Source: Escherichia phage Turkey3
Sequence record: PQ471515.1
Length of the DNA stretch: 64,000 nucleotides
Reading direction: 5' to 3' (one strand)
The notes under the pieces were generated by a model, which was not told the origin of the DNA, made no database searches, and saw nothing but the letters and a program-made list of their open reading frames with translations. The translations under genes were made by a program, and so were the position numbers. This document shows, piece after piece, positions 14,416 through 16,335 of the stretch. Positions within the stretch are counted from its first letter, which is position 1. Each line of letters starts with the position of its first letter.

Positions 14416-14445
14416 GGGACTCTTCGGAGTCCCTTTTCTTTTTAT
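14416..14445 (+). terminator. intrinsic terminator (GGGACTC-TTCG-GAGTCCC plus T-run)
   Basis: Perfect 7 bp stem, tetraloop, TTTTCTTTTTAT. Confidence 0.65.
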
Positions 14446-14454
14446 TAAAAACCC

Positions 14455-14483
14455 TTGACAAAATATTATTGGATGTGTATAAT
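14455..14483 (+). promoter_or_regulatory. consensus sigma70 promoter (TTGACA, 17 nt, TATAAT)
   Basis: Exact consensus hexamers with 17 nt spacer and TG upstream of -10. Confidence 0.6.
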
Positions 14484-14515
14484 ACGCACATACACGCAAA
14501 CAAAGAGACAGAATT

Positions 14516-15613
14516 ATGCCAAATGTAAGTATCAACAAAGAAGAGTTTATCAACCAAATGACTGCTAAGTATGGAGAATTCGATTTCAGTACTTTAGTAT
14601 TCAAGGCAAGTAAGACAACAGTGAAATGTAACAAGTGTGGAAAAGAAAACACCAAACCTGCACTTCGTCACATTGCATGTACATGTGCATCATGTTATTC
14701 AAACATGTCACAACGTTCAAACAACGACACATTCATCAGTACTGTAGAAACTAAATTTGGAAAAGATAAATTCAAATTTGATAAACTAAATTACACTAAT
14801 GCTATATCAAAAGTAACAATTTTCTGCACAGATGAAGATCACAATGATTACTTTGAAATTACACCAAATAAATTTCTTTCTGGTAAAGGATGCCCCGTAT
14901 GTAATAAAAATGAAGCATACAGTACTGAAGAGTTCAAAGAAAAAGTAAAAGATAATTATGGTGATTTATTGGATTTAACTAACACGGTGTATGTAAATCA
15001 AAAAACTAAAGTAACTGTGTATTGTAAAGCAGGTAATCATGAATGGACAGTTGATCCAAAAACTTTACTTGTTGGCAAGACTGGATGTGGTACATGCTCC
15101 GGTAAAGGCGGTCGAAGTACTGAACGTTTCATTGAACTTGTGTCGCCTATCCATAACCATAAGTATGATTATAGCTTGGTGGATTACAAGACTAGTGATG
15201 AACATGTGGATATTATTTGTCCTGAACATGGTGTCTTTAAACAAATACCCAAATCTCATATGGCAGGAAGAGGATGTCCATCATGTGGTGAGTATGGTTA
15301 TCAACCATCAAAGCCTGGATATTTCTATGTACAAAAACTATCTAATAACTCAAAAGTCGTTTACAAATACGGAATTACTGGTGACATGAAGAGGCGAATT
15401 CATGAACAAAGCCGTGATTCTGATTTTGAACACACTGTACTGGTAGAACGTTACTTTGAGGATGGTAACAAACCATTATTATTGGAAAAGTTCATCAAGC
15501 AATACATTGAAAGTGGTGTTGTAAGTACTGAAGAGTTACCATCAGGATTTACTGAAACTTTTGATGCTAAGTATCTTGAAAGTGTTTTGGAAATCGTAAA
15601 TACTTTTAAGTAA
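14516..15613 (+). CDS. four tandem zinc-ribbon modules fused to a C-terminal T5orf172 (GIY-YIG-like) domain
   Basis: Four ~55 aa repeats each ending in a CxxC knuckle (CNKCG, CPVCN, CGTCSG, CPSCG); C-terminal GYFYVQK...KYGIT...R pattern resembles T5orf172 by recall. Confidence 0.55.
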   Translation: MPNVSINKEEFINQMTAKYGEFDFSTLVFKASKTTVKCNKCGKENTKPALRHIACTCASCYSNMSQRSNNDTFISTVETKFGKDKFKFDKLNYTNAISKVTIFCTDEDHNDYFEITPNKFLSGKGCPVCNKNEAYSTEEFKEKVKDNYGDLLDLTNTVYVNQKTKVTVYCKAGNHEWTVDPKTLLVGKTGCGTCSGKGGRSTERFIELVSPIHNHKYDYSLVDYKTSDEHVDIICPEHGVFKQIPKSHMAGRGCPSCGEYGYQPSKPGYFYVQKLSNNSKVVYKYGITGDMKRRIHEQSRDSDFEHTVLVERYFEDGNKPLLLEKFIKQYIESGVVSTEELPSGFTETFDAKYLESVLEIVNTFK

Positions 15614-15636
15614 ACAACCATAAGGAGTTGACACGG

Positions 15637-15987
15637 ATGTTAACTGTATACATTTTTAAGAAAGAAGAGTACTTAAAGAGTCAGTACTCAAAAATTGAGA
15701 TTAATGTTCCATACGGAACTTTAGTTGGTTATGATGAAGCTAGTGAAACTTTGTATTATAATGATGATAGACTGGACTATAGTATTGATTCATTTATTGA
15801 AGACATACTTGATAGTAACACTGAAGATATGTTATATGAAGAATACTTAGATAAGTACAAAGAACGTATGTCAAAGTTACATGCTGATGCTCCAGTACTG
15901 AACATTTCAAAAACTCCTTCTGAATTCGAGCCACAAAACCCATTCCAACGCCTAATTGATGCTGGGGTAAATTTCCGAATTACTTGA
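15637..15987 (+). CDS. hypothetical protein
   Basis: ATG at 15637 with AAGGAG RBS (ORF track start 15628 is TTG); no motif recognised. Confidence 0.4.
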   Translation: MLTVYIFKKEEYLKSQYSKIEINVPYGTLVGYDEASETLYYNDDRLDYSIDSFIEDILDSNTEDMLYEEYLDKYKERMSKLHADAPVLNISKTPSEFEPQNPFQRLIDAGVNFRIT

Positions 15988-16026
15988 TTAATAAATATCT
16001 TCATATTACTGATGGAGATATTTTCT

Positions 16027-16335
16027 ATGTCACAGATATGTTATGTTATAGTAAATGATGCGTGGCCTGATTATGTTAAGATAGGATTTACCAGTAAATC
16101 TGAAATGACAGAACGTTTAAGGACATATCAAACTGCTACACCTTTTAGAGATTTTGTGGTATACCATGAAGTACACTTTGAAGATGCACGTTTAGCAGAG
16201 AAAGAAATTCACAAAAGACTAAAACAAATGAACGCAGTAAGGCAACCTAACACCGAGTGGTTCAAGATGCCTAAGAAGATAGCAGCGAACATCGTCGATT
16301 CTGTTCTTGACGATATGGAAAACGACTTGCTATAG
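16027..16335 (+). CDS. small T5orf172 (GIY-YIG-like) domain protein
   Basis: CYVIVND...KIGFT...R...Y pattern; ATG at 16027 with GGAGA RBS. Confidence 0.5.
   Translation: MSQICYVIVNDAWPDYVKIGFTSKSEMTERLRTYQTATPFRDFVVYHEVHFEDARLAEKEIHKRLKQMNAVRQPNTEWFKMPKKIAANIVDSVLDDMENDLL

Follow-up and report, generated by a model that had tools for sequence, protein, structure and literature searches.

Genes that join a T5orf172 nuclease domain to repeated CapR, DUF723 or DUF4379 modules are common across phages and are regarded as putative homing endonucleases, enriched beside capsid, terminase and ribonucleotide reductase genes and also where genetic exchange has its boundaries; capsid neighbourhoods hold 31% of such genes (Barth, Dunham and Seed, 2023; PMC10448857). 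Asteriusvirus, 121Q and RaK2 go unmentioned in that paper, and we found no prior description in the literature of the present locus in any of them. The locus belongs to Escherichia phage Turkey3 (PQ471515.1), of which a window of 64,000 nucleotides (nt) was analysed; all coordinates are window positions, and all features discussed lie on the plus strand. Just after the gene of the major capsid protein, positions 14446..15636 probably constitute a free-standing homing-endonuclease cassette of the T5orf172 class, about 1.19 kb long as delimited by comparison with relatives, which is made of a promoter, an open reading frame (ORF) of 365 codons named here ORF-A, and a replacement spacer that carries the ribosome-binding site of the next gene, ORF-B. 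The cassette is lodged between the capsid terminator and ORF-B, while ORF-B and its neighbour ORF-C lie outside it.

The architecture of ORF-A is that of the T5orf172 putative homing endonucleases of ICP1 and other phages, with zinc-finger repeats at the N-terminus and a T5orf172 domain at the C-terminus (a tblastn comparison with ICP1 tcgB gave 32% over residues 212–364 of ORF-A, E 6e-9). The likeness extends to populations: presence varies among close isolates, modules are lost in frame and domains are swapped, and the gene adjoins an essential gene, that of the capsid, at a boundary of genetic exchange. There are differences too. The host of ORF-A is an E. coli jumbo phage (Asteriusvirus); each genome has a single copy, at one site, instead of an expanded family, and the several deeply diverged alleles that occupy this locus are each tied to a synonymous capsid-gene haplotype of their own.

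Phage T4 offers another parallel, for its free-standing gene segD, of the GIY-YIG superfamily, likewise sits directly 3' of a gp23-type capsid gene; the original prediction was right in naming it as the T4 counterpart by position, although segD and gene 23 run in opposite directions while ORF-A is co-directional with the capsid gene. The seg genes of T4 spread through double-strand-break repair, with co-conversion of flanking markers. Seg proteins have a canonical GIY-YIG domain at their N-terminus and a different DNA-binding region at the C-terminus, whereas ORF-A shows the reverse order and uses zinc-ribbon modules. By analogy, ORF-A appears to act as a Seg-type homing endonuclease does, yet it belongs to the T5orf172 class. 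In the T5orf172 domain family Odn (ICP1 Gp88) is the sole member with demonstrated DNA cleavage: its T5orf172 domain cleaves DNA in vitro in a manner dependent on a conserved glutamate, the E180A variant being inactive (PMC8263062). Odn resembles ORF-A in fusing a T5orf172 domain, with conserved arginine and glutamate, to a sequence-specific DNA-binding domain. However, the DNA-binding part of Odn is RepA_N-like and targets the origin of a satellite, for defence and not for homing, whereas ORF-A carries zinc-ribbon repeats and the population signatures of a selfish element.

Those signatures come from comparison with relatives. By megablast the window groups with the Asteriusvirus jumbo phages of E. 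coli (121Q, PBECO4, G17 and others; 350–385 kb), the nearest records being WPEC5, fEgEco12, Ecwhy_1 and WPEC3 (95–98% identity), and the region from the capsid gene to the polymerase gene was compared across 15 relatives. The capsid gene (13196..14371; gp23 family, 391 residues, shorter than T4 gp23; Pfam Gp23 PF07068, E 1.5e-89; PHROG 138) is the left flank of the cassette and its likely target gene. It is followed by an intrinsic terminator at 14415..14445, a G+C-rich hairpin, AGGGACTCTTCGGAGTCCCT, with a T-run, readable on both strands. This terminator is kept in all Asteriusvirus relatives and divergence begins directly past the T-run, which sets the left boundary of the cassette. In PBECO4 and fEgEco12 both the promoter and ORF-A are missing; ORF-B and ORF-C are intact there, and a spacer of 48–56 nt separates the terminator from the start of ORF-B. 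CMSTMSU and two Salmonella Asteriusvirus records look empty too, judged by the length of the matched stretch. The PBECO4 and fEgEco12 spacers share homology but have no counterpart at occupied sites, so that empty sites cannot be read as plain deletions of the cassette. On the right, all E. coli phage occupants examined share the junction aaggagttgaca(c/a)ggATG, and because of this several independent insertions were judged less likely than a single old insertion followed by allele replacement, to which the comparison points. The mobile unit appears to be the promoter and ORF-A only, with ORF-B and ORF-C outside the mobile element. The idea of a mobile-gene hotspot, put forward in the original prediction, thus holds for the site past the capsid terminator with its promoter and ORF-A, which is not in all relatives and for which nuclease-fold support was found, and fails for ORF-B and ORF-C, which are fixed and syntenic.

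All occupants of the slot belong to one protein family, with amino acid identity to ORF-A of the window ranging from 98% down to 27–36%. They come in several lengths: 365 residues in the window, CRJP21, 121Q and WPEC3; 305–309 residues in WPEC5, Ecwhy_1, G17 and EC.P1, the 305-residue alleles having no first zinc-ribbon module; 332 residues in JNE01 and TH47; 406–408 residues in Turkey5 and RaK2. In RaK2 the 408-residue endonuclease overlaps the start of ORF-B. GAP32 has kept a C-terminal piece of 77 residues, gp251 (3183–3416 of its locus sequence), 40–47% identical to the final ~52 residues of the other occupants, which we read as a decayed endonuclease remnant at the same site.

Set against the genomic backbone, these alleles are misplaced. 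Flanking genes define two backbone groups (the labels are ours): group I, with the window, fEgEco12, WPEC5, WPEC3, Ecwhy_1, EC.P1, TH47 and CMSTMSU, has flanks 96–100% identical, and group II, with 121Q, PBECO4, CRJP21 and G17, has flanks 80–94% identical to the window. ORF-A of the window is closest to that of CRJP21, a group II phage (98% identity in amino acids, 96–98% in DNA); with WPEC3, of its own group, the figures are 89% and 83–91%, with WPEC5 amino acid identity is 73%, and fEgEco12 has no ORF-A, even though the flanks of these last three phages are 97.7–100% identical to the window. Group I moreover includes the 305-, 309- and 332-residue types as well as empty sites. As far as these comparisons go, cassette type is discordant with backbone. 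A step in divergence also falls at the cassette when the window is compared with 121Q, PBECO4, CRJP21 and G17 over 11990–18490: the scaffold and capsid genes are 92.5–94% identical (capsid synonymous divergence, dS, 0.27), and ORF-B, ORF-C and the N-terminal part of the tail-fibre gene are 80–84% identical (dS 1.06–1.45). This step fits the idea of nucleases at boundaries of genetic exchange.

The end of the capsid gene tells a similar story. Pairwise comparison of relatives revealed at 14098..14330 a mosaic of purely synonymous polymorphism, in two clusters (14098–14170 and 14248–14330). Compared with group I, the window has 0–3 differences in every 100 bp across the scaffold gene and the initial ~900 bp of the capsid gene, and over the final ~280 bp this rises to as many as 16 in 100 bp; against CRJP21 the pattern is reversed. 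Over its first 895 bp the capsid gene tracks the backbone (no more than 7 differences between members of a group, 53–58 between I and II), whereas its last 131 bp (14241–14371) track the cassette type: there are 2 differences there between the window and CRJP21, 2 between 121Q and WPEC3, and none among WPEC5, Ecwhy_1 and G17. All the changes at this 3' end are synonymous, several being switches between serine codon families, and the last amino acid difference is at residue 314. The tract shared with CRJP21 starts between 14138 and 14267, spans the cassette and ends sharply at the junction of ORF-A and ORF-B, where the backbone signal is back, with no difference to close relatives from 15606 onward. 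It looks like a co-conversion tract, the footprint expected of a cassette copied together with a short flank, and the capsid 3' stretch is a candidate region for the target of the endonuclease and for variants conferring immunity. Between and after the hypervariable clusters, blocks 14171–14247 and 14327–14371 are almost invariant in 13 genomes even at synonymous sites; they could be landing pads for recombination or a constrained nucleic-acid element.

The protein itself (ORF-A, 14516..15613; PHROG 681 'endonuclease', 7e-76) begins with four tandem zinc-ribbon modules of the CapR/DUF723/DUF4379 kind (14543..15286), seen in Pfam matches, in the alignment and in an AlphaFold (AF2) model, at residues 10–61, 72–130, 139–195 and 205–257. 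Their ligands are C38/C41/C57/C60, C104/H109/C126/C129, C170/H175/C191/C194 and C235/H238/C254/C257, and the array is presumed to be the DNA-recognition part. Among Pfam families, DUF4379 (a treble-clef zinc finger) passes its cut-off (26.8 bits against 24.5, E 6e-6), followed by CapR (E 1.1e-3) and DUF723 (E 0.012). The C-terminal domain (residues 266–365; 15311..15610) is of the T5orf172-like, GIY-YIG-fold type: 15 of 31 ORF-A homologues match T5orf172 and MUG113, and in the alignment of these 31 full-length proteins the cysteine ligands of the modules and residues Y271, Y283, G286, R293 and E347 are all invariant. The model (mean predicted local distance difference test score, pLDDT, 83.9, with a low predicted template-modelling score, as expected for beads on a string) displays four alike units of a helix and a beta-hairpin (pLDDT ~85), then a beta-beta-alpha-beta-alpha-alpha domain, a GIY-YIG-like fold that retains the arginine and the glutamate. 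The description of a zinc-ribbon protein with a T5orf172-like domain, which the original prediction had proposed to check by a profile search, is upheld in this form. What places ORF-A in the T5orf172 class is a nuclease domain keeping the conserved arginine and catalytic glutamate, with zinc-finger modules at the opposite terminus, a variable presence with alleles independent of backbone, and a position directly past the capsid terminator, next to an essential conserved gene. Canonical GIY-YIG (Pfam PF01541) gave no ORF-A match at E <= 0.1, nor is the nuclease domain N-terminal as it is in that type. The ratio of nonsynonymous to synonymous substitution rates (dN/dS) is ~0.1, which indicates that the gene is kept as a working protein. 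Among phage records, 937 contain relatives of ORF-A, one being ICP1 'tcgB putative homing endonuclease', and a large protein collection has 1804, of which most share the zinc-ribbon array and some have it fused to other types of nuclease. A sequence search of the PDB with ORF-A returned nothing meaningful (best E 0.28), and its PADLOC matches to Cas12 models, which concern the zinc ribbons only and are at chance level, were set aside. An Rfam search of 13000–18600 yielded no structured RNA and no intron, so that ORF-A is to be classed as free-standing, not as intron-encoded.

The promoter of the cassette, which the original prediction had placed directly after the gp23 terminator, is indeed there. 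At 14455..14483, ending 32 nt before the ATG of ORF-A at 14516, TTGACA and TATAAT (12 matches out of 12) are separated by 17 bp in an intergenic position facing the gene, as expected of a sigma-70 (RpoD) promoter, and the site ranks top among 46 promoter-like sites in 9000–24000. The 64 kb hold two such perfect sites and, with at most one mismatch allowed, seven sites against 1.44 expected, 7/7 of them on the coding (plus) strand, so this predicted promoter signal exceeds chance. The second perfect site is at 60375–60403, 45 nt 5' of an ORF at 60448–60951, with a one-mismatch site (60179–60207) 170 nt further 5'. A sigma-70-like promoter of differing sequence comes right after the terminator in 4/5 of the other occupied sites examined; the candidate -10 hexamer of RaK2 is doubtful, since it overlaps the annotated start codon. 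The putative sigma-70 promoter is, on this comparison, part of the cassette and travels with the gene. In Turkey5 the -35 hexamer of the endonuclease promoter (TTGACG) sits within the loop of the capsid terminator hairpin, and in GAP32 an extended -10-like sequence, TGGTATAAT, is found 3' of gp251 and ahead of ORF-B.

These features suggest how the cassette might perpetuate itself. Host RNA polymerase would transcribe ORF-A early during infection. In a mixed infection the protein would cut the genome of a co-infecting relative that does not have the same allele, close to where the cassette inserts, with the last ~280 bp of the capsid gene or the adjoining spacer as the most probable place. Recombinational repair off the cassette-bearing genome would then copy the cassette along with a short stretch of the capsid 3' end, and the allele-specific synonymous codons of this co-converted stretch would shield the carrier from its own enzyme.

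Next to the cassette lie two genes of another nature. ORF-B (15637..15987), its right flank, codes for an acidic protein of 116 residues (119 from an upstream TTG; PHROG 15724), and ORF-C (16027..16335) for a stand-alone T5orf172 protein, of GIY-YIG fold, with 102 residues; the sizes of 365 and 102 residues originally given for the first and last ORF were correct, that of 117 for the middle one was not. An alternative start of ORF-C, the ATG at 16012, would give 107 residues, but a GGAG before 16027 and the family alignment favour 102. ORF-B keeps its syntenic position in 66 jumbo-phage records, some of them cassette-free. ORF-C is 68–100% identical in amino acids in Asteriusvirus, GAP32 and the Erwinia, Xanthomonas and Salmonella jumbo phages, and adjoins ORF-B in every relative for which the region was fetched or both coordinates are reported. 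Both genes are syntenic and under purifying selection in Asteriusvirus, Mimasvirus GAP32 and the Erwinia, Serratia, Pectobacterium and Xanthomonas jumbo phages (dN/dS 0.11–0.21 for ORF-B, 0.05 for ORF-C), and among the relatives examined ORF-C is missing only in RaK2-type phages. RaK2 has an unrelated ORF of 244 residues, ORF097, in place of ORF-C (3913–4647 of its locus sequence). This distribution makes ORF-B and ORF-C, as far as the available genomes tell, backbone core genes of Rak2-like phages.

That ORF-C is a stand-alone T5orf172 protein, as had been proposed, is borne out by its match, over the full domain, to the Pfam family (PF10544; 50.6 bits, the gathering cut-off being 20). All of it is nuclease-fold domain; there is no DNA-recognition domain and no sporadic distribution of the kind seen in homing endonucleases. 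Its model is confident (pLDDT 86.1) and its top hits are to SLX1, as for ORF-A, while a sequence search of the PDB gave nothing meaningful (best E 0.72). Small ORFs in the transfer RNA region of T5-like phages, T5 included, are 37–44% identical to ORF-C and also limited to the nuclease-fold domain, but ORF-C differs from these in being a syntenic, highly conserved core gene between head and tail-fibre genes, preceded by a late-promoter-like motif. The N-terminal 90 residues of the 212-position profile of a candidate defence family in PADLOC, PDC-S57, are matched by ORF-C (E 1.9e-15), and PD-Lambda-1 weakly, which indicates that its nuclease-fold domain is also used in bacterial anti-phage candidates. 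The late-promoter-like motif is ATAAATA, which has been put forward as the late promoter of CBB and GAP32; a gp55-like sigma factor is likewise encoded by these two phages (PMC5259590). The window has 14 plus-strand copies, 8 of them (11936, 13145, 15991, 16338, 29542, 44467, 59551 and 61549) at most 80 nt 5' of a gene start where ~1 would be expected, such stretches making up 7.8% of the window. Copies precede the scaffold and capsid genes, ORF-C (15991..15997, 36 nt before its start) and the tail-fibre gene (16338..16344, 39 nt before), and there is none ahead of ORF-A or ORF-B. Since ORF-C has the motif as the scaffold, capsid and tail-fibre genes do, it probably has a late promoter of its own, from which it would be expressed late.

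How, then, should the locus be understood? In the original prediction ORF-A, ORF-B and ORF-C made up one mobile island, an operon driven by the consensus promoter. The three ORFs are indeed co-directional and closely spaced, two of them code for T5orf172-type domains, and no strong terminator is found between 14483 and ~18126, from the promoter to the end of the tail-fibre gene, so that the cassette promoter could read early into ORF-B, ORF-C and the tail-fibre gene. Yet ORF-B and ORF-C are in place in phages without promoter and ORF-A, and do not therefore depend on the cassette promoter; they are kept across several Rak2-like genera, the backbone signal returns at the ORF-A/ORF-B junction, and ORF-C has its ATAAATA motif. 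A three-gene island is largely refuted, and we consider it most improbable. It is unlikely, too, that ORF-A is a passenger with an inactive or irrelevant nuclease, shuffled by general homologous recombination, the capsid mosaic being then a hotspot beside a divergent segment. To be sure, the terminator on the left and the common junction on the right would allow flanking crossovers to swap alleles, the site coincides with the point where divergence steps up from the head module to the genes 3' of it, and cleavage by ORF-A is a prediction. But a useless gene should decay, as the GAP32 remnant did, when ORF-A is in fact under purifying selection with its catalytic-type arginine and glutamate invariant in the homologues; the spread of the family over 937 records of unrelated phages fits autonomous mobility, and the excess of polymorphism is limited to ~280 bp beside the cassette in otherwise identical genomes. 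A third possibility, which strikes us as improbable, is a nuclease or regulator domesticated in the service of the phage, either a weapon against satellites or competitors as Odn is, or a regulator of the capsid locus as CapR is. Odn (Gp88) and CapR do illustrate co-option for phage–satellite conflict and for repression of a capsid gene (PMC8263062, PMC8096241, PMC10448857), and ORF-A stands next to the capsid gene with an early-type promoter. A beneficial gene, however, would not be missing in close relatives or replaced by alleles 27–35% identical, a pure repressor would not be expected to keep its catalytic residues, and the link with a co-converted flank is a signature of homing.

We are thus left with a homing-endonuclease cassette as the probable explanation, against which several facts must be counted. 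Homing has been experimentally verified for no member of the T5orf172 class (PMC10448857). For ORF-A we infer cleavage, target site and biased inheritance from sequence, and the activity and early timing of its promoter are predicted in the same way. The protein's own matches to T5orf172 (E 0.015) and MUG113 (E 0.016) are below threshold, and comparison of the ORF-A and ORF-C family profiles gave a weak score (E 0.017, probability 2.7%), so that the link between their domains rests on the Pfam matches of the homologues, on PHROG 681, which matches both, and on the fold. The shared right junction implies that the diversity of alleles may reflect ordinary homologous exchange after one insertion and not repeated invasions driven by the nuclease. 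Finally, fEgEco12, an empty site, has the capsid 3' haplotype of the 305–307-residue allele group, which a simple model where haplotype means immunity to one's own enzyme does not predict.

The surroundings are those of a late structural cluster. Prohead protease and scaffold genes lie 5' of the capsid gene, and ORF-C is followed by the tail-fibre gene (16377–18086), then by the gene of a family-B DNA polymerase. In the tail fibre, the C-terminal part (17301–18490) is itself a swapped cassette, with a full match in WPEC5 only (96%); the other close relatives match 53–62% of this stretch at ~80–85% and have a separate tail-fibre assembly gene. The latter is missing in the window and in WPEC5, and the fibre of the window ends in a Gp53-like_C domain. 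Neither ORF-A, ORF-B nor ORF-C has a paralogue elsewhere within the 64-kb window, and an NCBIfam search gave no match for any of the three.

Going one step further, the slot might be a battleground where at least five diverged alleles, each with its own synonymous 'immunity' codons in the last ~130–280 bp of the capsid gene, would in mixed infections cut one another's capsid-gene haplotypes, while ORF-C would be the core of a former endonuclease, domesticated for a late nuclease role that benefits the phage. We hold this extension as tentative and, as it stands, rather doubtful; if true, it would drive marker exclusion and set the sharp boundary between a homogenised head module and diverged downstream genes. 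In any event, a block of genes that one genome presents as an island can turn out to combine a selfish cassette with two core genes. With the cassette, a late structural cluster acquires a promoter of early type, and this may change the expression of downstream genes. The locus is a clear further example of an element type already known, and its value is in unusually clean natural evidence: sites that are empty, a variety of alleles and a tract of co-conversion. It provides a natural and tractable test system in E. coli for T5orf172 homing, where near-isogenic phages come empty (fEgEco12) or filled (the window, WPEC3, WPEC5, TH47), where the co-conversion tract is visible and where the candidate target region, in the capsid gene, is short.

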